The notes under the pieces: generated by a model
What the model was told of the DNA's origin: nothing
Seen by the model: the letters and a program-made list of their open reading frames with translations, nothing else
Databases searched by the model: none
From: a virus
Direction: 5' to 3' (one strand)
Length of the DNA: 12,860 nucleotides
IMG/VR virus record: IMGVR_UViG_3300023082_000067
Coordinates: 1 to 12,860 of that record
In this document: one piece after another, positions 1 through 12,860 of the stretch
Position numbering within the stretch: position 1 is the first letter of the stretch
Layout of the letters: the number at the start of each line of letters is the position of its first letter
Position numbers and translations under genes: made by a program

Positions 1-127
1 ATAGCGCTTGCAGGTTCCATACTATTCTCTCCTTAGTTACAGGGTAACACCGTTAACCCGAGTCCAATAACCAGTAGCACCGTTACCATGCCATACGAAT
101 ATTTTACCGAAGTCAGGGGCTGCATAT
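1..127. repeat. terminal direct repeat, copy 1 (identical to 12734-12860)
   Basis: Base-by-base comparison: atagcgcttgcaggttccatac...ggggctgcatat occurs at both ends. It contains the first 20 nt of the 76-aa gene and the last 91 nt of the fibre gene. Confidence 0.95.
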
Positions 128-1596
128 TGATCCCCAATAACAGCAGTAAAGATATTGTAAACACCGTCAACAGCAGTGCTAACGTCAATATAACCAGTCT
201 CAGAGCCAGCAGGTACGTTACCACCACTAGGAGCAGAAGTAGACTTGAGTGCAGTACCAAACCAATAACGGCCCGGTGGTACAAGGTTACGTTGTGCTTC
301 TGTACCCGTCTGAATAATACCAATAAGCCCACCAGTAATACCGCTAATGGTTACAAGTGCAGCACTAGCAGCTTGGTTAGGGTTGAGGTTAGGCCAGTTA
401 GCAAACACAGAACCGTTATAGTTAATACCAGTCTTACCAGTTGGGAAACCTACAGCAGCAGCACCAACAGAACGCCAAGTAACAGTGCTACCGCTAATAG
501 TCCAAATGTAAGTGTTAACAGGGTTGGTAAAAGTAGTTACAATTGCAGTTTGGTTAGTTGCATTGAGTCTTACAATTTCCACTTGTCCCGGTTGACTAGC
601 AAAAGGAGCACCAGTGAAAGCCCCAGCAGGGAACCAGTATTGACCAACAGGCAAAGCGTTAATACCCGCTTGTGTTGCAAACAGTGCAGCACCTTCTACA
701 AAGTCACCCTCTACATACTGACCAAAGCGGCTAAGTTGTGCAGCTTCGTTAGGGTTGGACAAAGGCCAAGCTGTAATGTTTACATAACCAGTTCCGGGGT
801 CATATTGAACTGTTGGAATAGGGTAGCCAGCAGTAGAAGCCGGAACACTGCCCCAAGTACCGTCACCTTTCAATACAGTGGTGCTAGAAGCAGTACCAGT
901 ACCCAAACGAGCAGTACCAAACACACCAGAAGTAATGTCAGCAGCAGCAAGCGTAACAACACCAGTCTTACCAGCAACAGAACGAACAGGAGCGTCAGAG
1001 GCAGTTACAAAGCCAGCACCGTTAGTAAGTTGGTTAGTGTTGGTTGGAATTACAGTGTTACCGGGCATAGCTTGGTTAGCAGCAGTACCAACAATAGGAG
1101 CAAAGGTAGTTGGTTTCCCTGTTACCTCAGTCCAAGTAGGAACATAGCTAGCGTCTTTAGCGCCTACGTCAGCAGCGTCTAGAACAACAACACCCACTTG
1201 ACCGTTTACGCTCTCAACGTCTCCACCACCACCCCCACCGCCTACAACAACAGCCCATTCAGCGTTCTGACGTGCATACTGTTGCCCGTCTACAGGTGCT
1301 TCCTCAAGAATGACACTAGCGGCTAGGTTGTCGGCAATAGACTGTGCTCTGTCGGCTTGGTCACTAGACTCCTGTGCAAAGCCATTAGCGTTAATTGCTT
1401 CTTGTATTGCAGTGTTAGCATTAGTTTCAGCTTGAGCTTGTGCAATTTCTGCATTAGCCTCAGCCAGTTGTGCAGCAGCTACACTTTCTTGAACATTGTC
1501 AGCACCAGCAGTAATGGTTGCTACGTCAGTTTCAAGGGTGTTAGTTGCTGTAGTAATACGCACAATAAGCGCGTCAAAGTCAGCATTAGTTGCCAT
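37..1596 (-). CDS. tail fibre / receptor-binding protein (519 aa)
   Basis: ATG at 1596 overlaps the upstream stop (TAATG). Ala/Gln-rich coiled-coil N-terminus, then EAPVDGQQYARQNAEWAVV and a Gly7 linker. Two copies of the fibre-type motif (VESVNGQVGVVVLDAADVGA, VRSVAGKTGVVTLAAADI), plus VLKGDGTWGSVP. Two tandem related C-terminal domains. Confidence 0.75.
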   Translation of the reverse strand: MATNADFDALIVRITTATNTLETDVATITAGADNVQESVAAAQLAEANAEIAQAQAETNANTAIQEAINANGFAQESSDQADRAQSIADNLAASVILEEAPVDGQQYARQNAEWAVVVGGGGGGGDVESVNGQVGVVVLDAADVGAKDASYVPTWTEVTGKPTTFAPIVGTAANQAMPGNTVIPTNTNQLTNGAGFVTASDAPVRSVAGKTGVVTLAAADITSGVFGTARLGTGTASSTTVLKGDGTWGSVPASTAGYPIPTVQYDPGTGYVNITAWPLSNPNEAAQLSRFGQYVEGDFVEGAALFATQAGINALPVGQYWFPAGAFTGAPFASQPGQVEIVRLNATNQTAIVTTFTNPVNTYIWTISGSTVTWRSVGAAAVGFPTGKTGINYNGSVFANWPNLNPNQAASAALVTISGITGGLIGIIQTGTEAQRNLVPPGRYWFGTALKSTSAPSGGNVPAGSETGYIDVSTAVDGVYNIFTAVIGDQYAAPDFGKIFVWHGNGATGYWTRVNGVTL

Positions 1597-2105
1597 TAAG
1601 TTAATTCCTCTATTACTATTGGTGTGAGTTGGTGAAGCTCTCTAATTACAGCTTCAAACATGTCTACAAGTTCAGGGAATGGAACAGGTTCACCCAATGG
1701 GCTACCTTCTGGCCCCGGTTGGTCTGTAGTTGTGTATAAGCAGTCAAACTGAAAGTGTTTAGGTGCTCTACCGGCTTTGGTGTAGTCCTTAGAAGCAATA
1801 ATTACATACCAGCCTTCTTGTTGCCCTACTTGACTGTTACCACTCACCCAAGCATAAGTTTTAACTTGTGTTGCTTGTGGGGGTAAGTCACCGTATGCAG
1901 GAAGGTCACGAAGGTATAAGGTTCTGTAATTCTTGTAACTAGTGCCATAGTCAGCAAGGCTAAACATTGTTCCTTGTTTGAATGGTTGAATGTTACCCTT
2001 TACAAAGAATGGTTCTGTGGTGAAGGTTTGAAAGTCACCGTCAACATAGTAGCCATAGGTTGTAACAAAGGGAACCCAGTTTCTATAGAATGCTGCAATG
2101 CTCAT
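1596..2105 (-). CDS. hypothetical virion protein (169 aa), possible head-tail joining or neck component
   Basis: ATGA overlap with the terL stop and TAATG overlap with the fibre start, so it is translationally coupled between terminase and fibre. Looks beta-rich. No motif I can name. Confidence 0.7.
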   Translation of the reverse strand: MSIAAFYRNWVPFVTTYGYYVDGDFQTFTTEPFFVKGNIQPFKQGTMFSLADYGTSYKNYRTLYLRDLPAYGDLPPQATQVKTYAWVSGNSQVGQQEGWYVIIASKDYTKAGRAPKHFQFDCLYTTTDQPGPEGSPLGEPVPFPELVDMFEAVIRELHQLTPIVIEELT

Positions 2106-3595
2106 AGTAGCGTACTACCTCCCAAGCGTTTATATTGTGTTGAGTTCTGGTTAATACGAATAGTAGGAATTAAACTACCACCCGTTAGCATGTTGTAGCA
2201 GCTAGCCACGGCATCGACGATATCGTCATGTTGTCCGCTACAGTTATTACCGTCGAACGCTTCCATTTCTGCATAGTGTTCTTTAGTAAACACACCGGGA
2301 GCTACAAACACTTTCCCTTCTTGTAAAGCAATTAGAAAGTTCTCGGCTCGTGCCAACTTGCCCTTTCTTGTACTGTCTAGCACCACCTTATGACCTAATG
2401 CAGTCAAGCGGGCTTTCTTCTGGTCTGCTACCACCCTACCAGACGCACCAGCGTCAACAGGAATGGTTACATAGGTTTCTCTACCGTCTTCTTTAGCAGT
2501 GTTCTCAATTAGAGCCTGTACCATTGCTGGCCCGTCTCTGAGGCTTACCATATTCAGAATGTAGAAGTATCCAGCGTTCTTGTCATAAGTGGCCTTAATA
2601 CCCCGAGTCCAGTCAGGATCTTTGTTCCCTGCATGGGGTTTTGTACTAGCTAGGTCATAACTGCGAACAGTGGGCAAACCTAGTGGTATTTCTCTCAAGC
2701 TCACTTCTTTGAATTCGTCACGGTCAATATATCCGTCACCCTCAGTTTTAATAAACCAGTTGCCGAGCAGGTAGCGAGCGCGGTCTACAGTTTTCAAGTT
2801 CTCAAGTTTATGAACGTACTGTGGGAGGTGCTTACGAACATAGGGGTTATCGTAGACATTTGCCGAGTAATAAACGAACTTGAGGTGCATTGCGGCTTGT
2901 TCCTTACCTACCTCAGCTACCATGTCTTCAAACGTTTTCCACCACCTAAATTCCCCAGCAACTTGCAACATATACGTGGTTACACCGTCCCTCTCTTTAA
3001 TTGCATAACCGTCTTCACCTACATAGCCAGCATTAACAAGCCAAGTGCAAAGGAAGCTGGTATTCAGAGGGTTACAAGTAAGGCGTAGTTGGTGTTTCTG
3101 TTTACTCTTGGAACGTAACCTTGACGTCAAAAACCAGACGTCTTCTTCTTGACACTGTTGGCTTTCGTCTACCAGACATTCAGTCATTTGTGACCCATGC
3201 CAGTCGTCTTGGTTATTGAACAAGTGGTGACACTTAACCTCAGCACCAGACGGGAAAGCCCAACTACTTTCAATTTTGTTTGACGTAATGTTGTATGGTG
3301 CAAACAAGCGTATGCCTGTACTCCACAAACTACCCGCCATTTTCATTTGCTTTTGACTAGCCCGAGCTACACCAGCAACATAGTTCTTATCCCACATACC
3401 AGCGAGCATAAGACGAATTAAACTTAACTGTGTCTTACCTGCCGAAGCAGCCCCACCCCACACTACAATGTCATGCACGTTATCATTGAGGTAGGTTTCT
3501 TGTTTAATTGACAGCGGACATAGAATTTCAATTTCTTCTAGGTCTTCTTGTGTTAGGTGAAACGTGTAATTAAACTCTCTTTTTGCCTTAGCCAT
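2102..3595 (-). CDS. terL: terminase large subunit (497 aa)
   Basis: Walker A VVWGGAASAGKTQ and Walker B CLVDESQQ. C-terminal RNaseH-like nuclease signatures IPVDAGASG and HDDIVDAVASCY. GAGG RBS 8 nt upstream of the ATG at 3595. Confidence 0.95.
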   Translation of the reverse strand: MAKAKREFNYTFHLTQEDLEEIEILCPLSIKQETYLNDNVHDIVVWGGAASAGKTQLSLIRLMLAGMWDKNYVAGVARASQKQMKMAGSLWSTGIRLFAPYNITSNKIESSWAFPSGAEVKCHHLFNNQDDWHGSQMTECLVDESQQCQEEDVWFLTSRLRSKSKQKHQLRLTCNPLNTSFLCTWLVNAGYVGEDGYAIKERDGVTTYMLQVAGEFRWWKTFEDMVAEVGKEQAAMHLKFVYYSANVYDNPYVRKHLPQYVHKLENLKTVDRARYLLGNWFIKTEGDGYIDRDEFKEVSLREIPLGLPTVRSYDLASTKPHAGNKDPDWTRGIKATYDKNAGYFYILNMVSLRDGPAMVQALIENTAKEDGRETYVTIPVDAGASGRVVADQKKARLTALGHKVVLDSTRKGKLARAENFLIALQEGKVFVAPGVFTKEHYAEMEAFDGNNCSGQHDDIVDAVASCYNMLTGGSLIPTIRINQNSTQYKRLGGSTLL

Positions 3596-3619
3596 TAGTT
3601 AGCCTCAAATTGTAGAAAC

Positions 3620-3656
3620 AAAAAAGGGGAAAGGAGCGGTTTAGACTCCCCTCCCC
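3620..3656 (-). terminator. strand-specific rho-independent terminator after the capsid gene
   Basis: Minus-strand RNA GGGGAGGGGAG-UCUAAACCG-CUCCUUUCCCC followed by U6. This is an 11-bp stem with two G-U pairs. On the plus strand those pairs become A-C mismatches, so it works only for minus-strand transcripts. Confidence 0.8.
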
Positions 3657-3667
3657 TATAGGACTAG

Positions 3668-4672
3668 TTACGCACCAACAGTAAGGGCAACAGTTGCACC
3701 GAATTGTTCGTTAATAACCAGAGTGCTTTGCTCAGACTCTACTTCAACGTAACGGTCTTTCGGGTCACGGTAGGTAGAAGCGAAACGACGCGAACCAACA
3801 CCACCCAAACCAGACAGGGTAGAAGCTGGGCCGTAGAACGAAACACCCAGTTCAGTACGTGGAACCAGAACGCCAGCACCGTCAGCCAGAACTTCAACAA
3901 CAGCACCAGTCTTAGTGGTGAAGGTGTCGTCATACAGAACTACGTCAACGTTGCCGAAACGGAACATGGTGTAACCGTTAGCTACAGAACCAAGCTCGTT
4001 ACGCAGTGGGTTGCCCGAAGCCTGAGAGAACTGGTAGGCAGTGGCAACGTCTGGGCTTGCAATAATTTCAGCAAACATTTCAGCAGAAGCAAACAGAATG
4101 TAACCCTGAATACGACCGCCATTCATGAGGCCAGCACGGCTTTGAGCTTGAGCAGCACGCAGGTCAGCCAGAACAGTAGCAGAGCTAATAGTACCGGTAG
4201 GACGTGCAACACCGAACTCAGTAGCCATGTTAATGGTGCCGTAGTTGGTAGTAACAACAACACCGTTCAAGGTCATTTGAGCTTTCAGGTATTCTTCATG
4301 TACGTCATGACGCATTGCTTGACGTTCAAGTTCTTGTGCAACAGCTTGAGCAACAATTGCTTCACCTTCGCTACCGAATGCACGAACTCCAGCCAGTTTT
4401 TCACGGCCAAGAGTTTTAACAATTGGGTAGTGCGGAATAGCCAGAGTGTGAATGTCAAAAGGGCTGTCTTCGGTGCTGTTCTTCTGTGCTACGTTGCGCA
4501 GGTGGTCGTCCAGAATAGCCAAGCTATTTTCACGAACGTCAAAGCTAACAGCGTCAGTACGAACAGTTTCACCACGGTACAGACCAAGGGAACCAATAAG
4601 GCCGGGTTGAAACGGAATACGTTCAATGGCGGAAGTTTGGTCTACAACTTGGGTGTTATTCAGAATAGGCAT
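3668..4672 (-). CDS. major capsid protein, HK97 fold, lambda gpE-like (334 aa)
   Basis: Size, position after the scaffold and decoration genes, and overall resemblance to the phage major capsid protein E family (N-terminal PILNNTQV...IERIPFQPGLIGSLGLY, C-terminal STLVINEQFGATVALTV). AAGGA RBS, and followed by a strong terminator. Confidence 0.88.
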   Translation of the reverse strand: MPILNNTQVVDQTSAIERIPFQPGLIGSLGLYRGETVRTDAVSFDVRENSLAILDDHLRNVAQKNSTEDSPFDIHTLAIPHYPIVKTLGREKLAGVRAFGSEGEAIVAQAVAQELERQAMRHDVHEEYLKAQMTLNGVVVTTNYGTINMATEFGVARPTGTISSATVLADLRAAQAQSRAGLMNGGRIQGYILFASAEMFAEIIASPDVATAYQFSQASGNPLRNELGSVANGYTMFRFGNVDVVLYDDTFTTKTGAVVEVLADGAGVLVPRTELGVSFYGPASTLSGLGGVGSRRFASTYRDPKDRYVEVESEQSTLVINEQFGATVALTVGA

Positions 4673-4701
4673 TATTTATTTTTCCTTAGTATTAATTTAA
4701 A

Positions 4702-5028
4702 TTACTTGTTAACTACAACAATGCCAGCGTCAGCAAAGGCAGCGTCATGAGTTGCAGCTACATAGCCAACAAGGGCTTGAGCGTTTACAGTGGTAGGGTT
4801 GCCGCGAGTCATGAGACGTACACGAGTACCAATTGCCCACTGACCAGAGCCGTTAACAGCAGAAGGGAACACAGCAGTACCAACAATAGCGAAACCGCCG
4901 TTGTAAGCAACAACTTGACCAGACACAGCAGCAACAGCCAAAGCAACTTCGTCAAACGGTACGTTATAGTCACCATTCATTTGTACAATGAAGTCTTCTT
5001 GAGCACCAACAGTAGCGATAATAGGCAT
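4702..5028 (-). CDS. small head protein, probable decoration or cement protein (108 aa)
   Basis: Gly/Ala/Val-rich small protein encoded directly upstream of the capsid gene. It shares an almost identical ~30-nt translation initiation region with the capsid gene, and both proteins start MPI. TAATG overlap with the scaffold stop. Confidence 0.55.
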   Translation of the reverse strand: MPIIATVGAQEDFIVQMNGDYNVPFDEVALAVAAVSGQVVAYNGGFAIVGTAVFPSAVNGSGQWAIGTRVRLMTRGNPTTVNAQALVGYVAATHDAAFADAGIVVVNK

Positions 5029-5387
5029 TATTTATTTCCTTTGTATTTTTCAGAGAGGTAAGAGTCAACAAGGTTTTCGCCTTCGTCGGCGGTGTTGTCT
5101 TGTTGGTCTTGTTTCGTTTCAGGGTTAGTTTCTTTCTTGAACCAGTCACCACCACTAATGGTTTCGATCTGGCGTTCTTTCGTTTCCAGCAGTTCAAAGA
5201 CTGTGTTAAAACCTTCTTGGCCTTGCAGTTTCATAAAGACTGGGGCAAGTTCGTTAACTAGTTCTTCGTCGTACACAATGCCCTTGAGGCGTTGTTTAAT
5301 TTGCTCCTCAAGAGCACCTTTGTTTTCGTCTGCTTTCTTGTTAGCACTCCCCAAGAGGCGTTCTAACAGACTCGGTTTTTCACTCAT
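5028..5387 (-). CDS. scaffolding protein (119 aa)
   Basis: Highly charged, apparently helical and acidic protein (EEQIKQRLKGIVYDEELVNELAPVFMKLQ...) between the portal and capsid genes. No protease gene is present. Confidence 0.6.
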   Translation of the reverse strand: MSEKPSLLERLLGSANKKADENKGALEEQIKQRLKGIVYDEELVNELAPVFMKLQGQEGFNTVFELLETKERQIETISGGDWFKKETNPETKQDQQDNTADEGENLVDSYLSEKYKGNK

Positions 5388-5774
5388 TTAAATATACCTG
5401 TTTGCGAATTGTGAACACTCACCACCAAAAGCCTTGTCAAAGTCATTCCAGTTCTTACGGTCACTACGGAGAATGACGGGAACCTTTGCACCAGTGCGGC
5501 GACCTTGCAAACTAACAAGACGTGCAGTCAGTGCTTCGACTAGAGGGCCAGTTTCACTAGCGTCTCCAATTTGCCAACGCTGTGGGCTTAGAGCAATGTT
5601 ATTAATAATACTTTCCAGTGCCATTATTGAACCGTCAATAACGCTGTTACCTGCAAGCTCATAAAAGTAAACATAAATGGAGTCTTCCAAATACGGTTCG
5701 TCTTCTATGAAGTCACCAGTGTTCAAACGCATTTGGTCAACAAAGTTACTGGGGTCAAGGTTTGTACTAGCCAT
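5388..5774 (-). CDS. hypothetical head protein (128 aa), possible gp6-like head-tail adaptor
   Basis: Trimmed from the 201-aa track ORF to the ATG at 5774, which sits inside AATGGCTAG overlapping the portal stop and has an AGGGGG RBS 7 nt upstream. The N-terminal pattern FVDQMRLNTGDFIEDEPYLEDSIYVYFYELAGNSV is reminiscent of connector proteins. Confidence 0.6.
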   Translation of the reverse strand: MASTNLDPSNFVDQMRLNTGDFIEDEPYLEDSIYVYFYELAGNSVIDGSIMALESIINNIALSPQRWQIGDASETGPLVEALTARLVSLQGRRTGAKVPVILRSDRKNWNDFDKAFGGECSQFANRYI

Positions 5775-7050
5775 TGTTAACCCCCTTTGCAGGTAGCAAC
5801 TCGGTATAGTCAGCTTTAGGGGCGTCTCCAGCTTCACGAATGAACGTCTCAAGCCCTTTGTCAGCAGTAACAGCGCCAGCGGTAACAAGACGGCTCCAGC
5901 CTTCTGTGAACTCTGTCCAGTCAAGCGGTTGCACTGGTTCAAATTCAAGACTAGGCACACGGTCAAGTGGCAAACCATTAAGTTCATAGGCAATACGAAC
6001 AGCCTTCTTAAACTCTTGACTAATTACCCGTTGAATGTTTTCAATAAACAGCGTCATAAGGTATGTGCTGTTGTCTGACAGAGCGAAAGAACCACCTCCT
6101 TCAGCGCCCATACTCAGAACCATAGTTTGAAGGCTAAGTTGAATTTCTTGGTTATACCGTGCAATGGCTTGACCAACGTTGTAGTTTTGAGCGTTACCGC
6201 CATTACCACCAACAGTAGTAATTTCAAACATACGAACGCCATTCTGTTGTGTGTCACTAGCAGACAGAATGTAAGAGCCTTTACCAGCATGAAGCATTTC
6301 AGCTTGTGTCAGAAGGTTAGCTACATAAATAGCTTCTTCACTGTTTGGTTCAGCGTAAAACTTGTTAATGTATTCAGACGGTACTTTAATGTCTAGAACA
6401 CCAGAAAGGTTTTTAGCAACACCAATAGCTTCATACTCTTGCAGGATCTTTTTAGCCTTCCATGCTGTATATGCACCGTACAACAAACTTTTACCAAGTG
6501 GGAAGTCTGAGTCTGGTTCTACACGGAAAAACAAAACCTTGTCACCGTTAATGTTCTTTTGTTCAGTACCAACGTTAACAAGTAGTCCGTCATTGTCAGG
6601 ACTTGACAGTTTCAACCTTTTGAGTCGCCCACCGTCCATTTCAAACTTTTCAACTGAGGTTAGGTGAATAGGGGAAATTGTTTTAAATACGAACTTACCG
6701 CCTACACGTTCACACACAACTTCATTCAAGCTGCAACCGTAGTCAAGCATTTGCAACCAGTTAGAAATAAGTCTCTTTTTGTCGTAGTCTTCCATTGTTT
6801 CCAAAGAAAGGTTCAGAGCGTCAATTAAGGCTTTCTCTTGCTGGTTACTGTCTACGTGGTATGCAATTTGATAGTTACCTTTACTGAGTACCGCTTTAAT
6901 GAAACTCATGCTACCGGAAATAATACCGTCTAGTTTCATGTCTCTGTAAGTGTAAAAGGCTTTGTTAACCGAAAGGTCAGACTTACCAAGTTGTAATACT
7001 GTGTTCTCTACGTGTAGTGGCTGGCTCTGTTGAGTCAGGTTAGCCGCCAA
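5767..7050 (-). CDS. portal protein (427 aa), Mu gp29/DUF935-like
   Basis: Size, position and portal-like sequence (YRDMKLDGIISGSMSFIKAVLSKGNYQI..., a Gly-rich tunnel-loop-like GGNGGNAQN, MGAEGGGSFA). The start is TTG at 7050, with GGAG 9 nt upstream. The first in-frame ATG is 37 codons further in. Confidence 0.88.
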   Translation of the reverse strand: MAANLTQQSQPLHVENTVLQLGKSDLSVNKAFYTYRDMKLDGIISGSMSFIKAVLSKGNYQIAYHVDSNQQEKALIDALNLSLETMEDYDKKRLISNWLQMLDYGCSLNEVVCERVGGKFVFKTISPIHLTSVEKFEMDGGRLKRLKLSSPDNDGLLVNVGTEQKNINGDKVLFFRVEPDSDFPLGKSLLYGAYTAWKAKKILQEYEAIGVAKNLSGVLDIKVPSEYINKFYAEPNSEEAIYVANLLTQAEMLHAGKGSYILSASDTQQNGVRMFEITTVGGNGGNAQNYNVGQAIARYNQEIQLSLQTMVLSMGAEGGGSFALSDNSTYLMTLFIENIQRVISQEFKKAVRIAYELNGLPLDRVPSLEFEPVQPLDWTEFTEGWSRLVTAGAVTADKGLETFIREAGDAPKADYTELLPAKGVNNG

Positions 7051-7056
7051 TGTTTG

Positions 7057-7308
7057 TTACTCCTGTTGTTGTAGGTCTTTGGTTAGTTTGTCTAGCCACC
7101 GTTCCCACGTCATTGTGTAGCAGCCACCAAACTTGACGTACTGTTGCGTAGAACGCCACAAGTATTCCAAGTCATAAGGGTGGTTAGCCAACATGTAACG
7201 TAGGTATTCTTTCAATTCAGGGCTAGGTGTTTTGGTACATTCCTTGTTACTGAAACAGTGCAAGGGAATGTCTTTAAGAGTCTTATAAGGACTTGTCTGT
7301 TTACTCAA
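7057..7308 (-). CDS. hypothetical protein (83 aa)
   Basis: ORF coupled to the upstream gene by a TTGA overlap (TTG start at 7308). It ends 6 nt before the portal start. Trp/Tyr-rich, with no recognisable motif. The first internal ATG is at codon 39. Confidence 0.55.
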   Translation of the reverse strand: MSKQTSPYKTLKDIPLHCFSNKECTKTPSPELKEYLRYMLANHPYDLEYLWRSTQQYVKFGGCYTMTWERWLDKLTKDLQQQE

Positions 7309-7817
7309 TGTAGTGTTTCCTTTACTGGAATAAGTTTCCCTAGTTTGACAAACACTTTAATGTCAATATTCACACCTTCACTGCGGTCATAGGTGCGGCC
7401 AAACTTACGGTTCATAGCTTCAACTGGTGCAGTAGTACCAAAGAATTTAAGACGTGCTTTGTTCTCTTTTACATAGGCTTTAAGGTCAGCACTCAGAACA
7501 ACAACCCATTGTGCTTTCCCTTCCCACCACACTTGCCACATGTAATAGTCACTTTCATTCTTGACAAAGCAACCCGGTTGTGTTGCACCGTTACGAGTGT
7601 TAATGGTCAGCAATTCAATTTGTACGTTCTTGTATGCCTTGGAACCGCTCAAGCTGTCTTTCACAGAACAGGACTTGACAGAGCCGTCACGAGCTGGCAC
7701 CATTACGTCAATGTCTTTGTATTGAAGTGCAAGTTCAGTCACCAACGTTCCCTTGAACTGTTGTGCTGCTACGTGCTCAGCGTTAAAACCTTTACCGTCA
7801 AAATGTACATTACTCAT
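7305..7817 (-). CDS. hypothetical protein (170 aa), first gene of the morphogenesis block, weak PD-(D/E)xK-like pattern
   Basis: ATG at 7817 with a GGAGGG RBS. The spacing of E14, D35/D37 and S51-V-K53 resembles a restriction-endonuclease-like core, but the acidic residue of the ExK motif is Ser. Confidence 0.75.
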   Translation of the reverse strand: MSNVHFDGKGFNAEHVAAQQFKGTLVTELALQYKDIDVMVPARDGSVKSCSVKDSLSGSKAYKNVQIELLTINTRNGATQPGCFVKNESDYYMWQVWWEGKAQWVVVLSADLKAYVKENKARLKFFGTTAPVEAMNRKFGRTYDRSEGVNIDIKVFVKLGKLIPVKETLH

Positions 7818-7855
7818 TGTTTCTTACCCTCCAAAGGGTTAGTATTAAATAGTGT

Positions 7856-7870
7856 GGGGGTCATGCCCCC
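7856..7870 (-). promoter_or_regulatory. GC hairpin upstream of the 170-aa gene
   Basis: GGGGG-tcatg-CCCCC lies about 20 nt upstream of the TAATACTAACC motif and the RBS. There is no clear U tract. Confidence 0.35.
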
Positions 7871-7896
7871 TATTGGTTTAAAAACGTTTGGACACG

Positions 7897-7918
7897 ACAA
7901 AACCCCCAAGAAGGAGGT
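7897..7918 (-). terminator. candidate terminator or attenuator closing the early unit
   Basis: Minus-strand RNA ACCUCC-UUCUU-GGGGGU followed by UUUGU. The stem is 6 bp including one G-U pair, and the U tract is short. Confidence 0.35.
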
Positions 7919-7972
7919 TATTTAGTTCGTGTATTACTACAGGTCTAAATAAAGTTTAGTTGAATTCGCGGT

Positions 7973-8015
7973 ATAGGCACCACACTAACCATGTCCTATA
8001 CATAGGCACCATACT
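7973..8015. repeat. direct repeat pair ATAGGCACCA(C/T)ACT
   Basis: The 14-mers at 7973-7986 and 8002-8015 differ at one position and start 29 bp apart. They sit in non-coding DNA just after the 52-aa ORF. Confidence 0.7.
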
Positions 8016-8042
8016 GTGCCCCTCTCCACCACTTGCAGACAG

Positions 8043-8201
8043 TCACAAGACTGGTGCTCTTTTGTCTAGTGGCAGACTCATTTGTTCAAGAAGCCACCAC
8101 TCTACATTCTTACCTTCTTTCTTTAGTTCCTCTAAGAACTTGTCACTGTACTTACGTCTCACTTGGCGGAAGTTCTCTCCCGTTACTACGTCAAGTCTCA
8201 T
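8043..8201 (-). CDS. small unlisted ORF (52 aa), MRLDVVTGENFRQVRRKYSDKFLEELKKEGKNVEWWLLEQMSLPLDKRAPVL
   Basis: Hand-translated from ATG 8201 to TGA 8043. Charged, protein-like composition, and located just downstream of a sigma70-like promoter. The RBS is weak (GAG). Confidence 0.4.
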   Translation of the reverse strand: MRLDVVTGENFRQVRRKYSDKFLEELKKEGKNVEWWLLEQMSLPLDKRAPVL

Positions 8202-8234
8202 AACACTAACTCTGTTTCTGTTGGTTAAGTAAGT

Positions 8235-8263
8235 AGTTTACACACTAAACCCTTCAAAGTCAA
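8235..8263 (-). promoter_or_regulatory. sigma70-like promoter TTGACT-17-TAAACT
   Basis: On the minus strand, TTGACT (8263-8258), a 17-nt spacer, then TAAACT (8240-8235). It begins 20 nt after the stop of the 306-aa gene. Confidence 0.45.
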
Positions 8264-8282
8264 CCCCTAGAGCAACTTTATT

Positions 8283-9203
8283 TTATACTGACATAACATA
8301 TTCTTCAAACTCCGGCATTGAGTCAAAGTCTGGAACCCAATTGTCTATTTCTTCTTTGAAGTAGTCGCTAACGTCAGCACCAACATTGTTTGCAAACCAA
8401 GCCTCAAACCCAATGTCAATTACTTCATTCTTCTTAGGTGCCTTGTTCCACCATTCGCCGGGGCTAAAGTCTTCTGCACTATCAAACAATGTAAAGCCAT
8501 TACCACGCACTTCATAATTGTTAGTACCGCTGTACTTGGTTGTAATGTCAAACACAGGTCCAGTGTACGGCGCTGGTGGTCCAACAAAAGGTTCATACAG
8601 TGCGCGTTGCTGTGTCTCTTTATCGAGCTTGTAATACGTGTTGTTGGCACTAGGAATACCGCTTGCACGTCCCTTGTAACCAAGCATAGGAGCAATGAAC
8701 AACTTAATAAAGCCTTTCTTACTCTCTTGCTGTTGTACCCATTCCTCTACAAGCTTCAACTTACGTGCTAGGTTGGACTCATTAATACCAAGCTTTGCAC
8801 ACAAGAAAGAACGCTTACAAAGAATAATGTTCTTATAGCTAATGCACTCTACAAGCTGTTTCATGAACTTGTATTGAGGCGTGCTAATTAATGCTTTCTC
8901 TTTCAGTGTCCGTACACGGTAGTCACTTTCTTTCTTGAACCATGTAAGGTCTGACTTTAGCTTTAGTCCTCGTTGGTCAACAGTGGCTTTCATAACGTCA
9001 CTCAACTGGTCAGGGTCTGTACACTCATGAGCGGTACGAACAGTGGCAGAGTAAAACCGTTTGTCGTCTGTGCTAGCTTGGGTGTTGACAACCTCATACA
9101 CAGGAGTAATAATTTCACCAGTGACAAGGTCAACAAGGTGTTTACCAATTGCAGCCGTGTTTTCAGTTACTTCATACATTGGTTGTGGTACATGGTTAAG
9201 CAT
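8283..9203 (-). CDS. winged-helix DNA-binding protein, candidate replication initiator (306 aa)
   Basis: I prefer the ATG at 9203 (AGAGGT RBS 6-7 nt upstream) over the TTG at 9218. Central HTH-like segment LCAKLGINESNLARKLKLVEEWV and an acidic C-terminal tail DFDSMPEFEEYV. It is the only sizeable non-structural protein in the genome. The function is inferred, not recognised. Confidence 0.8.
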   Translation of the reverse strand: MLNHVPQPMYEVTENTAAIGKHLVDLVTGEIITPVYEVVNTQASTDDKRFYSATVRTAHECTDPDQLSDVMKATVDQRGLKLKSDLTWFKKESDYRVRTLKEKALISTPQYKFMKQLVECISYKNIILCKRSFLCAKLGINESNLARKLKLVEEWVQQQESKKGFIKLFIAPMLGYKGRASGIPSANNTYYKLDKETQQRALYEPFVGPPAPYTGPVFDITTKYSGTNNYEVRGNGFTLFDSAEDFSPGEWWNKAPKKNEVIDIGFEAWFANNVGADVSDYFKEEIDNWVPDFDSMPEFEEYVMSV

Positions 9204-9324
9204 TTTCTTACCTCTCAAGGTTGAATTGTGTCCGTCACTAAATGGAAAAGTGAAGACTAAATAGGGCTACAGCCCACGGTTTATAAGGGGTGTACTAGTT
9301 TTCTTATTACTTTATAAAGAAACT

Positions 9325-9513
9325 CTATTTCTGTTTAGCACTCAAGGCTAACAGAATATTATCCAACAGTAAAGAAGGGCTTTGGTTTTGTGTAACAGCT
9401 AGAGAGTCAAGAAACAACAAACTCTCTTTTGAAAGGTAGAACCGACGACGAATAAGGTTTTTATCTTTTACCACTTGCTCGCTGTCTTTACTTAGTTTAA
9501 CATACTCACTCAT
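9325..9513 (-). CDS. ribbon-helix-helix (Arc/CopG-type) transcriptional regulator (62 aa)
   Basis: IRRRFYLSKESLLFLDSLAVTQNQSPSLLLDNILLAL fits the beta strand-helix-turn-helix pattern. GAGG RBS. It is the first gene of the long minus-strand unit, next to the divergent control region. Confidence 0.6.
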   Translation of the reverse strand: MSEYVKLSKDSEQVVKDKNLIRRRFYLSKESLLFLDSLAVTQNQSPSLLLDNILLALSAKQK

Positions 9514-9619
9514 TGGAACGCCTCTATAGGTTTGGTTTTAAAAAGAAAGAATTATTTCTCCCCTTTCTCATTATAAGTATAACATGGTTTTGGTAGTTTG
9601 TATATAGCAATAAGCATTT

Positions 9620-9638
9620 AGTTACAAATAAAGTAACT
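9620..9638. promoter_or_regulatory. candidate operator AGTTAC-N7-GTAACT
   Basis: Perfect 6-bp inverted repeat with a 7-bp AT spacer. Confidence 0.45.
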
Positions 9639-9760
9639 TTCTGTTAGTGCTATAAAAACCTCTACCTCTTAATATTATAGTACCATGTATTTTTAATTCT
9701 GTAAAGCATTATTTGTTGTAAGTGCAAGAAAAACGTGTTAAAGGGCTTAAAAGTGAAGGA

Positions 9761-9806
9761 ATTCTGACAGACGGTCTTGTATTATAGAGAATTATAGAGT
9801 CAGAAT
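9761..9806. promoter_or_regulatory. composite element: 8-bp inverted repeat ATTCTGAC/GTCAGAAT enclosing the tandem repeat ATTATAGAG(A/T) x2 (9781-9800)
   Basis: Read directly from the sequence: attctgac at 9761-9768, attatagaga and attatagagt at 9781-9800, gtcagaat at 9799-9806. Confidence 0.5.
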
Positions 9807-9938
9807 AATTGTTTTTGTCTGTTAGAAAGCAGACGAACGGTATGCACTTTGTTTGTGTATAGGCTTGCGTGCCTGTGTGGTTCTGTTATTCTGTACCTAC
9901 ACCAACTGAGAAGCCCAAGAGGGCTAAGGTAGAAAGAA

Positions 9939-10217
9939 ATGGAACACGTAGCCACCATTAGCCAAATGCGTAACCTGTTAGACTCAACAGCCGGTAAAAT
10001 ATTCTCTGTGACATTCGTAAAGAAAGACGGCACTGTTAGAGACATGGTTTGCAGGAACGAAGTAACAAAGGGCACTAGCGGCGGTGTAGCTGGTCACGCA
10101 CACAAAGAAGAACTTTACACTGTGTATGACATTCAGGCTCAAGGCTTTCGCTGTGTTAACCTCACAACTGTAAAACGTATTAAGTGTGGTGAACTCAACA
10201 AGGAGTGGTATGTATGA
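9939..10217 (+). CDS. small SH3-like beta-barrel protein of unknown function (92 aa)
   Basis: The pattern KIFSVTFVKKDGTVRDMVCR...LYTVYDIQAQGFRCVNLTTVKRIK matches my memory of a widespread small phage protein family (DUF2693-like), not verified. An AAGG RBS-like element lies upstream. Confidence 0.65.
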   Translation: MEHVATISQMRNLLDSTAGKIFSVTFVKKDGTVRDMVCRNEVTKGTSGGVAGHAHKEELYTVYDIQAQGFRCVNLTTVKRIKCGELNKEWYV

Positions 10218-10351
10218 GCGTGCAATTGTTCATTGAAGGTGAACCAAACGTGTACTCTGTTGTCATATTTAAGAACATGAGTATTGTGCAAGAAATACAG
10301 AGAGCAGCTAGGAAATTCGGTAAGCGTTGTTTTTATATACCTTGTGCATAG
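10214..10351 (+). CDS. small unlisted ORF (45 aa), MSVQLFIEGEPNVYSVVIFKNMSIVQEIQRAARKFGKRCFYIPCA
   Basis: ATGA overlap with the stop of the 92-aa gene, and a strong AAGGAG 8 nt upstream of the ATG. A terminator follows. Confidence 0.5.
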   Translation: MSVQLFIEGEPNVYSVVIFKNMSIVQEIQRAARKFGKRCFYIPCA

Positions 10352-10389
10352 CTGTCGCTCTATAAATATAGTGTTTGGTTCGTCCCTTT

Positions 10390-10413
10390 GCCCCTTCCCC
10401 GAGGGGCTTTTTT
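10390..10413 (+). terminator. rho-independent terminator at the convergent junction
   Basis: GCCCCT-tccccg-AGGGGC followed by T6. The T tract overlaps the o-spanin stop codon on the other strand, so the hairpin may serve both converging units. Confidence 0.8.
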
Positions 10414-10636
10414 ATGGGCGTAACTTATTCAACTGTGCGTTACCCTTCCTTACTTCCAGTGTCAAGCTAATGTAGCATTGTGCTAGCTCTGTCTCGCTGT
10501 AGTCATTCAGTGGGCATTCAGCAAGCGCCTGAACGTCATACACAGGACAAACGTTAGGGCTTACCATTGAAGTCTTTGAGCACCCTAGTAACAGGCTCAG
10601 ACAGAGAGTTGTTAACCCCATTCTTGTTACGTTCAT
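10412..10636 (-). CDS. o-spanin (outer-membrane lipoprotein, 74 aa)
   Basis: Signal sequence with lipobox LLLGC (Cys19). The start is embedded in the i-spanin gene in another frame and the ORF extends past its stop (overlapped architecture). Several further Cys residues. Confidence 0.8.
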   Translation of the reverse strand: MNVTRMGLTTLCLSLLLGCSKTSMVSPNVCPVYDVQALAECPLNDYSETELAQCYISLTLEVRKGNAQLNKLRP

Positions 10637-10928
10637 CGGCTATACCTTTGAGTGTGAGTGTGTAGGAGTCCAGTTCCTTTTTAAACTTAGCTGTCATTGT
10701 GTCTAACTCTTTGTTCCAGTCTTTACGCTGTTGCTCATAGAGTTTCATTTGTTGTATTGAGTATTCAGCAGACTCTAACTTACTTTGACTTACAGCTAGC
10801 TCCCAATTGCGGTTAGAAAGCTCATTACTTAGCGTCATATATGAGTAAAGGAACCACGTTAGGACTAAACCCAAGCTGACCCACAGCACAGCACTAAATG
10901 TTATTTTACTTGTTATAAATGCCCACAT
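10554..10928 (-). CDS. i-spanin (124 aa)
   Basis: N-terminal TM segment FSAVLWVSLGLVLTWFLYSY followed by coiled-coil sequence. Lies directly after the endolysin gene and overlaps the o-spanin gene. Confidence 0.8.
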   Translation of the reverse strand: MWAFITSKITFSAVLWVSLGLVLTWFLYSYMTLSNELSNRNWELAVSQSKLESAEYSIQQMKLYEQQRKDWNKELDTMTAKFKKELDSYTLTLKGIADERNKNGVNNSLSEPVTRVLKDFNGKP

Positions 10929-11478
10929 ATTCCCATATCCTTTTAACGTATGTTGTTGTCTCTACAGAATGCTTTCCTGTAATGAGTGGAAGTGCTTTTG
11001 CCATTGGTTCATAATAAAGGCTGTTACCTCCTTTAGCTTGTGCCTTCAATATGTTTCCAAGTCCAGCGTTATAGCTAGCTAGTGCTAAAGAGTGTCTGTC
11101 TACTTCTGGTCTAGGCTTCTTAAACTGTCCTCTCAAGTAGTTCATATAATAAGCATGAGCTTGAATGTTGTAAGAGGAAGCATAAGCTTTAGTTCCAACT
11201 GGAAACCCTAACTCCTTACTAACCTGTGTCCAAGTGTCGGGCATGAACTGACCTAACCCCATAGCACCAACTGGTGACGTTGCTTGTGTGTCTAAGCGAC
11301 TCTCAGCTACTAATTGAGCCTTTGCCCACACCCAAGGTATAGAAGGGTTGTAAACAGCGTTCCATTTGGCTATTTGTAGGTCATAAATGGTGTTACGGAG
11401 AGCGTTAGCACTAGTAGGAGTACACACACCAAGGGTAGCTAATAAGAGAGCTAGAACTACACTATAAATGCGACACAT
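10906..11478 (-). CDS. endolysin, family-1 lytic transglycosylase (SLT domain) with N-terminal signal sequence (190 aa)
   Basis: Catalytic AES, then GAMGLGQFMPDTW and SYNAGLGN motifs. The N-terminus MCRIYSVVLALLLATLGVCTPTSANA looks like a Sec signal or SAR segment. Confidence 0.88.
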   Translation of the reverse strand: MCRIYSVVLALLLATLGVCTPTSANALRNTIYDLQIAKWNAVYNPSIPWVWAKAQLVAESRLDTQATSPVGAMGLGQFMPDTWTQVSKELGFPVGTKAYASSYNIQAHAYYMNYLRGQFKKPRPEVDRHSLALASYNAGLGNILKAQAKGGNSLYYEPMAKALPLITGKHSVETTTYVKRIWEYVGIYNK

Positions 11479-11690
11479 ACAATTAACCCTAGAGCAATGG
11501 AACTACCAAGAAACCTAAGACCATAGTAATGACTCATAGCTTTAGGACACTCTTCTATTCTGTCAAAGGCTTTCTTAAAGTCTATACCTAATAGCTTGTC
11601 AAAGAACTTTAATAGGACGTATTGAGTGAGTAGAAAGAGAATGAATGCAACTAAACCCATTCCAAGTTTAAGCATAAAGAGAGTAAACAT
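11457..11690 (-). CDS. holin, two TM segments (77 aa)
   Basis: Hydrophobic segments at about residues 5-27 and 56-77 with a charged linker. It sits immediately upstream of the endolysin gene and overlaps it by 22 nt. AAGGA RBS. Confidence 0.7.
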   Translation of the reverse strand: MFTLFMLKLGMGLVAFILFLLTQYVLLKFFDKLLGIDFKKAFDRIEECPKAMSHYYGLRFLGSSIALGLIVCVAFIV

Positions 11691-11705
11691 ATTAAATATT
11701 TCCTT

Positions 11706-11720
11706 CGTGCATATTGCACG
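11706..11720. promoter_or_regulatory. 15-bp palindrome CGTGCA-TAT-TGCACG abutting the holin RBS
   Basis: Perfect 6-bp arms. On the minus strand it reads CGTGCAATATGCACG and is followed directly by AAGGAAAT(N8)ATG. Confidence 0.5.
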
Positions 11721-11812
11721 GTTAGTATTGAGTTAGTTAAGTTCGGTTAAATGCTCTGAACTCCTTATATAGCAAGGGTTGTAGGCAATTACCTTAGTTG
11801 TGTTAGTGTTAC

Positions 11813-11874
11813 TTACGTTGGCCCGACGACATTTTTTTGACGTTGTCAACACTTATTTTACGTCACCGACGAAC
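11813..11874. repeat. direct repeat TTACGT(TGGC/CA)CCGACGA flanking a T7 tract
   Basis: TTACGTTGGCCCGACGAC at 11813-11830 and TTACGTCACCGACGAAC at 11858-11874, with atttttttgacgttgtcaac between them. Confidence 0.6.
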
Positions 11875-11889
11875 GGTTACTGCCAGAAT

Positions 11890-12335
11890 ACTGACACAAT
11901 GTCCAATGAATAATATCTATCGACTAGGTTTGTCCAATAGTATTTACCTATGTGTCTAGTCATTGTATTTATCTATCAGCTCAGCAGTCCTAATAGAGTA
12001 TGACTAAGACAGAGAGCTAGCACACACAGAGTAGACTGTCAAGTGTAGCTGACCAATGGTACTGTATAAGTTAACAGGTATTGACACACATACTGAACTG
12101 TGCATAGCAACCTTGTAGCTACTATAGAGTACGTGGAATATAGATAATATGTTAAATTGAAATAAAACTTCTTTCAGTTATTTACTGCTTTGTCAAGTAG
12201 TTTATTCTCATTGCATATTTCTATTCATTTGTGTCAGTCAATAGAGTGTGACTATGCTGTGTGTATAGGTTTAGTCTATCGAATGTCTGTGTCCAATGAA
12301 TACATACAATTAGACAAGCTCACCAATATCCTGTA
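11890..12335. repeat. iteron-like repeat field around an AT-rich core, candidate origin of replication and/or packaging site
   Basis: TGTCCAATGAATA occurs exactly at 11900-11912 and 12290-12302. Each copy is followed 30-31 bp later by a degenerate copy (TGTCCAATAGTAT at 11931, TCACCAATATCCT at 12320). A further TGACCAATGGTAC lies at 12050. AATAGAGT(A/G)TGACTA occurs at 11992-12006 and 12240-12254. The AT-rich stretch spans roughly 12131-12232. Confidence 0.55.
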
Positions 12336-12522
12336 AAATAATAGTTGACGCCCCTATGAAAAGCATAGTCCCATTACCACATTTTATTAGAATACCCCGC
12401 CTAATAGCTGTACCCTATTTATGGAACATTTGGAAAAGAAACCTCTACAGGCTACTTTGTGTTTCCCCGACTACATATAGCCACACATACATTAGTTATT
12501 ATTCGTCAGTAGACACTAAACT

Positions 12523-12753
12523 CTATGGTTTAGCGTTATGCTCTACTTGAATTTTAATTATCTCTACGTCCGTTTTCAGCTTATTAAGTGTGGCGTTAAT
12601 ATCACCTAGAACGTCGAGCTTTGTTTCTACCTTAGTTAGTCGTGAGTCTACGTCTTCCAGCTTCTTAAAGCGGTCTTTAATTAACCACCCAATGAAACCA
12701 AGTAGACCCACAACCACTATACCAACTAACCATATAGCGCTTGCAGGTTCCAT
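12523..12753 (-). CDS. small membrane-anchored coiled-coil protein (76 aa), function unknown
   Basis: ATG at 12753 (equivalent to position 20), with AAGGAGAG upstream, 16 nt after the fibre stop across the junction. N-terminal TM segment IWLVGIVVVGLLGFIGWLI, then a heptad-like KKLEDVDSRLTKVETKLDVLGDINATLNKLKTDVEII. Confidence 0.75.
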   Translation of the reverse strand: MEPASAIWLVGIVVVGLLGFIGWLIKDRFKKLEDVDSRLTKVETKLDVLGDINATLNKLKTDVEIIKIQVEHNAKP

Positions 12754-12860
12754 ACTATTCTCTCCTTAGTTACAGGGTAACACCGTTAACCCGAGTCCAA
12801 TAACCAGTAGCACCGTTACCATGCCATACGAATATTTTACCGAAGTCAGGGGCTGCATAT
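12734..12860. repeat. terminal direct repeat, copy 2. 12770-12860 is a redundant partial copy of the fibre gene 3' end, not a second gene.
   Basis: Identical to 1-127. A length of 127 fits a de Bruijn k-mer overlap of a circular assembly, or a short physical DTR. Confidence 0.95.

Follow-up and report, generated by a model that had tools for sequence, protein, structure and literature searches.

The viral DNA considered here, IMG/VR record IMGVR_UViG_3300023082_000067, was analysed over its whole length (positions 1 to 12,860, hereafter the window). We tentatively explain it, at a little short of an even chance, as the complete genome of a self-sufficient and extremely reduced relative of the tailed phages that infects a Gram-negative host. 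The features of Caudoviricetes are present, namely an HK97-fold capsid protein, a portal and an ATP-driven large terminase (TerL), and a tail, be it a tube or a nozzle, is not. On the best reading, the "tail" of this 12.7 kb element consists only of an adaptor, a stopper ring and a fibre. Because no tail tube is encoded, infection would have to proceed with almost no tail or with a borrowed one. A previous reading made without database searches (the sequence-only reading) had proposed either a reduced podovirus-like virion or a capsid-forming satellite that borrows a tail. These two possibilities are also those that we rank first and second, and the neck turned out to be of the myovirus type.

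The window represents a closed genome of 12,733 bp because both of its ends share an exact overlap of 127 nucleotides (nt). Bases 1-127 are identical (100%) to bases 12734-12860 at a spacing of 12733, and this terminal repeat is an assembly overlap marking a circular or circularly permuted genome. At least four relatives are likewise circular, namely L012 (12,379 bp), L050 (12,379 bp), L021 (12,139 bp) and the distant relative L011 (13,232 bp; capsid identity 46%). The overlaps of the five independent assemblies measure 127, 127, 55, 55 and 144 nt, and all of them close at 12.1-13.2 kb with a shared gene order. Moreover, the gene order runs across the junction of the circle, as the fibre gene stops at position 37 and the gene for a protein of 76 amino acids (aa) starts 17 nt further on, at position 12753. 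The finding concerns the whole window and not only positions 37-9513, to which the sequence-only reading had confined it; the 76-aa gene lies outside these limits.

Many relatives of the element are present in IMG/VR and in metagenome collections. For the 169-, 128- and 170-aa proteins, a search of 5.8 billion protein clusters uncovered 47, 93 and 17 homologues, respectively, and the longest contigs behind these clusters (more than 150) do not exceed 14.4 kb. The same limit applies to the contigs that carry relatives of the portal, down to an identity of 45%. In the relatives, the order of the core genes is constant (nuclease, 83-aa protein, portal, adaptor, scaffold, decoration protein, capsid protein, TerL, stopper, fibre and 76-aa protein). 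No nucleotide match was detected by megablast among 50,697 deposited phage records, and the best capsid match in these records reached an identity of 29%; no close relative has thus been described. Nor was a published description of the 12-13 kb element family found in the literature; the "twilight" small HK97 genomes and the Charybdis elements were considered as matches and judged to be different things. Resident copies were found neither by two scans with two peptide patterns each, which covered 185,579 bacterial and archaeal species with one genome apiece, nor among 72,556 plasmids, for which the nearest PLSDB match was only 24% identical. As the contigs remain at or below 14.4 kb and no copies turned up in genomes or plasmids, an origin as a prophage fragment or chromosomal island is unsupported. 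An integrated copy or a place in a larger contig, both considered by the sequence-only reading, was found in none of the genome scans, the plasmid search and the contigs behind the protein clusters.

The neck of the element could be assigned by comparing profiles and predicted structures. The 128-aa protein is, according to its profile and its model, a head-to-tail adaptor of the Felix O1-like myovirus type. A profile of 30 family members matches the PDB chains 9mt4_C (Bas63) and 9c39_C (Sf14) with E values of 2e-5 to 4e-5 and also the Pakpunavirus "Head to Tail protein gp72". The AlphaFold 2 (AF2) model, with a predicted local distance difference test score (pLDDT) of 72, is made up of helices together with a beta-hairpin (aa 66-75) and an arm at the C-terminus, and its best Foldseek matches are the adaptors of Bas63, P7-1, Sf14 and PhiTE. 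In the Bas63 adaptor, the hairpin is located at residues 65-74 (PMC12609058). The same kind of evidence identifies the 169-aa protein as a predicted head-completion (stopper) protein of the Felix O1-like myovirus type. Its profile matches 9mt4_E (Bas63) and 9c39_E (Sf14), both named "Head-closure protein" (E 2.5e-6), and the best Foldseek matches of its AF2 model (pLDDT 77.5) in the PDB and BFVD are the stoppers of many myo- and siphoviruses. The fold is thus that of a stopper and not that of the lower collar or knob of phi29-like podoviruses. In addition, the 169-aa protein has a conserved C-terminal helix (aa 143-168), which the matched stoppers lack. Since the stopper gene overlaps the TerL stop with its start and abuts the fibre start with its stop, a coupled expression of TerL, stopper and fibre is suggested.

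By analogy to solved connectors, the neck would be composed of two rings, the adaptor being of the 12-mer type and the head-completion protein of the 6-mer type. The connector of Bas63 consists of portal (12), adaptor (12), head-completion protein (6), tail terminator (6) and tube/sheath (PMC12609058). Of these features, the element possesses the portal, the adaptor with hairpin and C-terminal arm and the head-completion protein. The adaptor and the head-completion protein are homologous, by profile and fold, to those of the Felix O1-like connectors (Bas63, 9MT4; Sf14, 9C39; PhiTE; Pakpunavirus P7-1). However, the Felix O1-like group comprises virulent myoviruses of 85-100 kb, and the genome of the 12.7 kb element is about seven times smaller. 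The heads of Bas63 and Sf14 are decorated (T=9 in Sf14), and their virions also have a tail terminator, sheath, tube, baseplate, collar and whiskers, whereas the element retains just the first three connector rings. It has also been observed that the nearest deposited relatives of TerL (31-33% identity), portal (about 25%), capsid protein (26-29%), adaptor, stopper and nuclease are large phages, mostly of 76-100 kb and chiefly Ounavirinae, Pakpunavirus-like and Otagovirus-like myoviruses. For instance, the TerL identity refers to TerL of Pseudomonas myoviruses of 88-99 kb and the portal identity to Ounavirinae portals. Among the five small proteins that the sequence-only reading had left without a function, two are thus neck proteins and the 170-aa protein is nuclease-like (see below), whereas the 83-aa and 52-aa proteins are still without assignment. 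The proposed comparison with adaptor, nozzle and stopper families did not produce a set of adaptor plus nozzle; what it gave was an adaptor together with a stopper, as in long-tailed phages.

The genome lacks most other parts of a tailed phage. None of the real or antisense open reading frames (ORFs) matched Pfam, PHROG or NCBIfam entries for a tail tube, nozzle, sheath, tape measure or baseplate, or for a polymerase, an integrase or the small terminase TerS. The sequence-only reading had noted that a recognisable tail, polymerase, small terminase and integrase are missing, which holds true for every ORF, antisense ones included. It was also right about the missing protein-primed PolB, as no ORF has a polymerase match and the map is circular. 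In the same databases, the ORFs of the window matched neither an HNH protein nor a prohead protease. The tail-side parts are limited to adaptor, stopper and fibre, also in the relatives examined, and no candidate ORF remains for a P22/T7-type nozzle or tail hub and internal ejection proteins. The antisense ORFs of 348-364 aa are artefacts. Moreover, the window contains no tRNAs and no Rfam family above threshold.

The fibre combines a constant anchor with a variable remainder. Its N-terminal anchor sequence is MATNADFDALIVRITTATNTLE, and the first 25 or so residues (MATNxDFxxLIxRIxTATxTLE) are kept across the family. The Ala-rich N-terminal third looks helical and, by inspection of the sequence, like a coiled coil. 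The motif ILEEAPVDGQQYARQNAEWAVV at aa 96-117 (nt 1246-1311) aligns with the foldon of T4 fibritin and is followed by a Gly7 linker and by repeats common to the tail fibres of Otagovirus-like and other phages. This foldon-like trimerisation motif is located in the middle and not at the end of the protein, and the fibre of L021 has two of them (aa ~90-110 and ~215-235). By contrast to the N-terminus, the C-terminus is hypervariable, with 26-69% identity between genomes whose capsid proteins are 78-89% identical; for instance, in L002/L012 the fibre is 26% identical past the N-terminus and the capsid protein 89%. As the N-terminus is constant and the remainder diverges fast, the fibre probably binds the receptor and is anchored on a partner that is itself conserved. 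The hypervariable C-terminus also suggests that it targets receptors on the cell surface rather than a helper virion. In L025, the largest member of the family (14.4 kb), two extra proteins of 283-288 aa with internally repeated segments are encoded 3' of the fibre gene (L025 971-2698; L052 2791-3642). They are likely additional receptor-binding modules, which would explain the added length.

Several signals speak for autonomy of the element. The four-gene lysis cassette is complete and of the Gram-negative type, and such a cassette is unreported in the consulted descriptions of phage-inducible chromosomal islands that form capsids (cf-PICIs) and of the Streptomyces satellite MiniFlayer. Further signals are the element's own variable early module, the hypervariable C-terminus of the fibre, as expected of a protein that binds receptors on cells, the lack of an integrase and of resident copies in the scans, and the family-wide conservation of both the fibre N-terminus and the C-terminal helix of the stopper. 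As a real particle, a tail-less capsid with adapter and short fibres has a precedent in MiniFlayer (PMC10690885).

A self-sufficient phage of this kind might work as follows. The DNA would be replicated by host polymerases and replication started by the element's own variable, swappable initiator, with the divergent RHH/WYL region at the GC-skew minimum as the control region. TerL would cut and package the DNA, perhaps with the help of the 83-aa protein, into a small head of T=3 or T=4. Once the DNA is inside, the portal would be closed by the adaptor and the head-completion ring. The conserved N-terminal helix of the fibre may dock on the stopper ring, possibly via the additional helix at the C-terminus of this 169-aa stopper; the stopper gene would be translationally coupled to the fibre gene. 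The fibre would then serve as plug and attachment organ as well as receptor-binding protein. A trimeric fibre whose helical N-terminus sits on a six-fold ring and acts as plug and sensor would resemble the trimeric coiled-coil needle gp26 of the P22/Sf6-type tail. This likeness is an analogy only, and the comparison of the fibre with the PDB gave no significant match to gp26 chains. Release would occur through the own holin, endolysin and spanins. With respect to the head, a genome-length model gives a range of 8.1-17.1 kb for T=3 and of 13.2-24.5 kb for T=4 (PMC7762592). The genome of 12.7 kb falls inside the T=3 range of this model and just under the T=4 range, so that the T=4-like head of the sequence-only reading is uncertain. 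It is also possible that a head larger than T=3 or T=4 is filled by headful packaging of multimers.

The smallest autonomous tailed phages, phi29-like phages and Astrithrvirus with 11.6 kb and Mycoplasma P1 with 11.7 kb, are similar to the element in size and in their podovirus-like economy. The phi29-like phages have a protein-primed PolB, linear genomes and a lower collar with a tail knob. In contrast, the element lacks a polymerase, its map is circular, its terminase is of the T4 type and a stopper takes the place of the knob or nozzle. An adaptor of related fold also occurs in the P22/Sf6-type tail (adaptor gp4, nozzle gp10, needle gp26), but the nozzle and the ejection proteins have no counterpart in the element.

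A number of points weigh against a self-sufficient phage. The neck ends at the head-completion ring, and in every solved relative this ring docks the tail terminator and a long tail (PMC12609058). No podovirus protein was among the named structural matches of the 169-aa model in the PDB and BFVD. A tail terminator, collar or whisker, needle and ejection proteins were not found among the window ORFs, and the window also has no recognised TerS. Only the 76-aa protein came into question as a membrane-active part of the virion, and it bears more resemblance to a lysis accessory of the XhlA/BhlA type; the attachment of the fibre to the neck is a step that we infer. As far as we know, the short-tailed phages of Gram-negative bacteria that have been studied all need a nozzle, tube, needle or ejection parts for crossing the envelope. 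Finally, MiniFlayer as the sole known particle of such a build is a satellite (PMC10690885).

The element could indeed be a satellite that forms its own capsid, does not integrate and relies on a helper phage; a large myovirus of the Felix O1-like or Pakpunavirus-like kind would be a plausible helper. We regard this reading as a serious possibility, though a rather doubtful one. Pre-assembled helper tails could dock on the ring, as in cf-PICIs and MulchRoom, or the fibre could mediate a ride on the helper virion, as in MiniFlayer. A neck of the long-tailed type that stops exactly at the binding point of the tail terminator would suit a satellite, and so would the absence of tail and ejection genes from the window ORFs and the fact that TerL, portal, capsid protein, adaptor, stopper and the 170-aa nuclease are nearest to large virulent myoviruses. 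MiniFlayer and MulchRoom (PMC10690885) as well as the cf-PICIs serve as precedents. However, the element has a full lysis cassette and an early/replication module, tasks that the described satellites leave to the helper, and, with a long tail in place, the hypervariable receptor-binding fibre on the neck would be a large distance away from the cell. The means by which such a satellite waits for its helper are also hard to see because integrase, partition genes and resident copies in genomes or plasmids are all missing. Moreover, the 5.8 billion protein clusters revealed no large phage whose neck proteins are closely related. Readings in which a second replicon carries the tail and entry genes, the element being either part of a multipartite phage or a defective or domesticated producer of particles, are unlikely. 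Tail, TerS and polymerase must be supplied from somewhere, as every member lacks them, but the element has its own complete lysis module, regulators and packaging module, and its diversity and hypervariable fibre point to an actively spreading agent. A domesticated locus resembling a gene transfer agent is not at hand because the element is absent from the bacterial genomes scanned, and we know of no multipartite tailed phage. Still less credible is an assembly artefact or an incomplete piece of some larger phage or prophage of the ordinary kind. An end overlap of 127 nt could, taken alone, stem from a repeat, but five independent assemblies with differing overlap lengths close at 12.1-13.2 kb with one gene order, the homologue clusters never occur on a contig above 14.4 kb and the genes are continuous over the junction (fibre stop and 76-aa gene).

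The comparison with known satellites shows how far the likeness extends. The cf-PICIs such as EcCIEDL933 (10-15 kb) encode their own capsid, portal, head-tail connectors and terminase and no tail genes, as does the 12.7 kb element, and form tail-less heads that accept helper tails. However, they are chromosomal and have an integrase, a protease, HNH, TerS and PICI regulators, none of which was found in the element. Conversely, cf-PICIs are without fibre and lysis genes, both of which the element has. In build, MiniFlayer is the closest analogue, with a small capsid, adapter, short fibres and no integrase. The MiniFlayer genome of 17.4 kb has a tail-fibre gene and no integrase, and the particle, made of capsid, adapter and short fibres, appears in electron microscopy as a capsid of about 42 nm with short fibres only (PMC10690885). 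The genomes of MiniFlayer and MulchRoom, whose hosts are Gram-positive, are linear with terminal repeats of about 1 kb; they encode an HNH endonuclease and no replication genes, and lysis genes have not been reported for them. The element, compared by description only, differs by its circular map, Gram-negative lysis cassette, early module and stopper. With respect to a reliance on a helper of the MiniFlayer type, the lysis cassette is accompanied by an early module without database matches.

The features of the window are listed in Table 1. All real genes but one are located on the minus strand, and the plus strand carries the WYL_2 gene alone. In the direction of transcription, the genes for the ribbon-helix-helix (RHH)-like, 311-aa, 52-aa, 170-aa and 83-aa proteins are followed by those for the portal, the 128-aa protein and the scaffold-like, decoration-like and capsid proteins. 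Past the capsid terminator follow TerL, the 169-aa protein, the fibre, the 76-aa protein, 832 nt of non-coding DNA, the holin-like protein, the SLT endolysin, the i-spanin and the o-spanin. The assigned genes cover about 85% of the genome. As to the gene set given by the sequence-only reading, portal, capsid protein, TerL, endolysin and spanins were supported by Pfam and PHROG and the fibre by its repeats and foldon-like motif, whereas scaffold, decoration protein and holin are weaker assignments. Its RHH regulator (62 aa) has no database match, although the pattern is visible by eye and kept in relatives. A winged helix-turn-helix in the 311-aa protein found no database support.

Table 1 Features of the window (positions of the 12,860-nt stretch)
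Feature	Position	Strand	Basis
Terminal direct repeat	1..127	no strand	copy of 12734-12860
Fibre / receptor-binding protein, 519 aa	37..1596	-	foldon and fibre-repeat matches; tail-fibre repeats
Predicted head-completion (stopper) protein, 169 aa	1596..2105	-	profile vs PDB, AF2 model, Foldseek
TerL, 497 aa	2102..3595	-	Pfam Terminase_6N/Terminase_6C; phrog_979 E 1e-113
Intrinsic terminator, very strong	3625..3657	-	13-bp stem and T-run; between capsid gene and TerL
Major capsid protein, HK97-fold, lambda gpE family, 334 aa	3668..4672	-	Pfam Phage_cap_E E 5e-39, full length; phrog_29
Probable decoration/cement protein, 108 aa	4702..5028	-	weak matches; directly upstream of capsid gene
Probable scaffolding protein, 119 aa, helical, acidic	5028..5387	-	position and composition only
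Predicted head-to-tail adaptor, 128 aa	5388..5774	-	profile vs PDB, AF2 model, Foldseek
Portal, 427 aa	5767..7050	-	Pfam Portal_Mu E 2e-15; phrog_113 E 1e-44
Conserved core protein, 83 aa	7057..7308	-	conservation; small-terminase candidate by position only
PD-(D/E)XK-type nuclease-like protein, 170 aa	7305..7817	-	invariant residues, weak Pfam matches, myovirus homologue
52-aa protein, non-core	8043..8201	-	present in only some relatives
311-aa protein, variable early module	8283..9218	-	unrelated proteins in its place in relatives
RHH-like regulator, 62 aa, IRRRFYLSKESL...SPSLLLD	9325..9513	-	RHH pattern by eye; kept in family
AT-rich divergent intergenic region	9514..9938	no strand	between RHH gene and sole plus-strand gene
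WYL_2-domain protein, 92 aa	9939..10217	+	Pfam WYL_2 E 1.8e-7; phrog_2267 E 3e-20
Terminator after WYL_2 gene	10390-10407		
Spanin pair: Rz-like i-spanin (10554-10928), overlapping lipoprotein o-spanin (10412-10636)	10412..10928	-	lipobox LLLGC
Secreted lytic transglycosylase endolysin, 190 aa	10906..11478	-	Pfam SLT E 3e-15; phrog_669 E 3.5e-29
Holin-like protein, 77 aa	11457..11690	-	position, two hydrophobic segments; phrog_37365 (unknown function) E 3e-6
Non-coding block, 832 nt, ~7% of genome	11691..12522	no strand	equivalent place in eight relatives
76-aa protein, motif RLTKVETKLDVLGDI..LKTDVEIIK	12523..12753	-	N-terminal hydrophobic (membrane-type) segment

In the head and packaging region, the 108-aa decoration candidate is accompanied by sub-threshold matches of family members to Phage_cement_2 (E 0.034) and to HDPD, the lambda gpD type (E 0.031). 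The 119-aa scaffold candidate is kept in all relatives and has no match in Pfam, PHROG or other profiles. The terminator between the capsid gene and TerL probably sets a high ratio of capsid to terminase expression. The 83-aa protein is kept as far as a lineage with 47% portal identity, and no match was obtained for it in Pfam, PHROG, NCBIfam or profile searches; it is not related to the gene adjoining the nuclease homologue in phage Arno18. In the ORF calls of L052 (11979-13604) and L055 (10469-12040), for which the start codons are predicted, TerL has 523-541 aa as compared to 497 aa in the window. Judging from its sequence, the basic N-terminus of the L052 TerL (KKRVAAPKKKE...GGRP) could be a built-in DNA-binding arm that replaces a small terminase.

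The 170-aa protein is, by its residue pattern, a nuclease and non-structural. In an alignment of 60 members, E14, D37, K53 and E68 are invariant, which corresponds to a PD-(D/E)XK-type pattern; 76 remote homologues were found, and a few family members weakly match PDDEXK_5, Hjc and UPF0102. A comparison of its profile with the PDB gave no match. The protein is homologous to orf48 of the Pectobacterium phage Arno18 (L047 4001-4495; hhalign 99.7%), which lies in the early region of this Ounavirinae myovirus, about 17 kb from the Arno18 portal. Homologues are also encoded in the early regions of Arno162, Wc4 and Yersinia P778, and these phages and Arno18 are those that give the best portal matches.

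Upstream of the nuclease gene, the early module is variable. The 311-aa protein is presumed to be a replication initiator or regulator; neither the 52-, 311- and 62-aa proteins nor the early proteins of the relatives gave a match in Pfam, PHROG, NCBIfam or profile searches. Between otherwise similar genomes the module is exchanged (window 8043-9218; L008 2420-3576; L021 3393-4886; L025 4352-5719). The variants are the 311-aa protein, a 245-aa protein with small ORFs, and a P-loop protein of 455-497 aa (SSGKT...IDEA) on the opposite strand, none of them with a database match. L011 encodes in its early region a 316-aa protein (5222-6172) that has no counterpart in the window and no Pfam match. 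The cumulative GC-skew minimum falls inside the intergenic region between the RHH and WYL_2 genes, which is thus a candidate switch and/or origin. Past the WYL_2 gene, a sub-threshold Rfam match to the small RNA STnc100 (10317-10419, plus strand; 24.8 bits versus a gathering threshold of 47; E 0.052) overlaps the terminator and is most likely due to chance.

Among the lysis genes, the spanins match phrog_739 (E 2e-5) and phrog_456 (E 0.0025), and weakly Pfam LysC. The lysis cassette is also exchanged between genomes (window 10412-11690; L021 2589-3353; L025 3546-4248). In low-GC relatives, the lysis genes encode a membrane protein of 72-79 aa and a CHAP-like enzyme of 166-168 aa, and no spanins were detected there. 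These differences between the cassettes hint at different host envelopes. The C-terminal motif of the 76-aa protein is heptad-like, strongly conserved and, by inspection, a coiled coil. Weak matches of family members to XhlA (E 0.0028) and the BhlA holin (E 0.017) suggest that the protein probably assists lysis in the manner of XhlA/BhlA instead of being a part of the virion. A role as a DNA pilot like H of phiX174 was set aside because these weak matches favour lysis and no PDB match was obtained.

The 832-nt block between the 76-aa gene and the lysis cassette has an equivalent of about 0.85-1.1 kb in the eight relatives in which its boundaries could be set (L002, L011, L012, L013, L014, L015, L021 and L025). 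It contains a conserved island of about 90 nt (~12286-12374) and repeated TTGACA, CTGATAGAT and TATTCATTGGAC motifs, and conservation is confined to short islands. The block is a possible pac site, origin or late control region. Some of the islands are common to genomes with different early modules and are therefore unlikely to be initiator-specific iterons. A packaging RNA of the pRNA type is unsupported because no Rfam family was detected in the block, the RNA structure is not above that of shuffled sequences (z = -1.75) and only the short islands are conserved.

If the element is autonomous, it would be among the smallest relatives of the tailed phages and, of the autonomous members of their lineage that lack a protein-primed polymerase, the most reduced one; we know of no other tailed-phage relative of such a size that lacks this polymerase. 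In this case, a stub of portal, adaptor and stopper together with a fibre would suffice for the infection of a Gram-negative cell, which would imply a new route of DNA entry and raise the question of how the envelope is crossed. The family might then also supply the "missing small tailed phages" with T=3/T=4 heads that have long been sought. In its broadest form, the proposal is that a deep and widespread HK97-fold clade infects Gram-negative bacteria without a tail channel or ejection proteins by means of such a stub and a single fibre as the sole parts outside the head, a T=3/T=4 head and a host-replicated genome of 12-13 kb, which we put forward with caution as something that may well prove wrong. 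If, on the other hand, the elements are satellites, they would be of a novel sort, which does not integrate, has its own lysis genes and receptor-binding fibre and is tied to large virulent myoviruses; to our knowledge, no capsid-forming satellite of such phages has been reported. In either case, the family is abundant in metagenomes and, its list of parts being short and completely enumerated, lends itself to structural and genetic tests.

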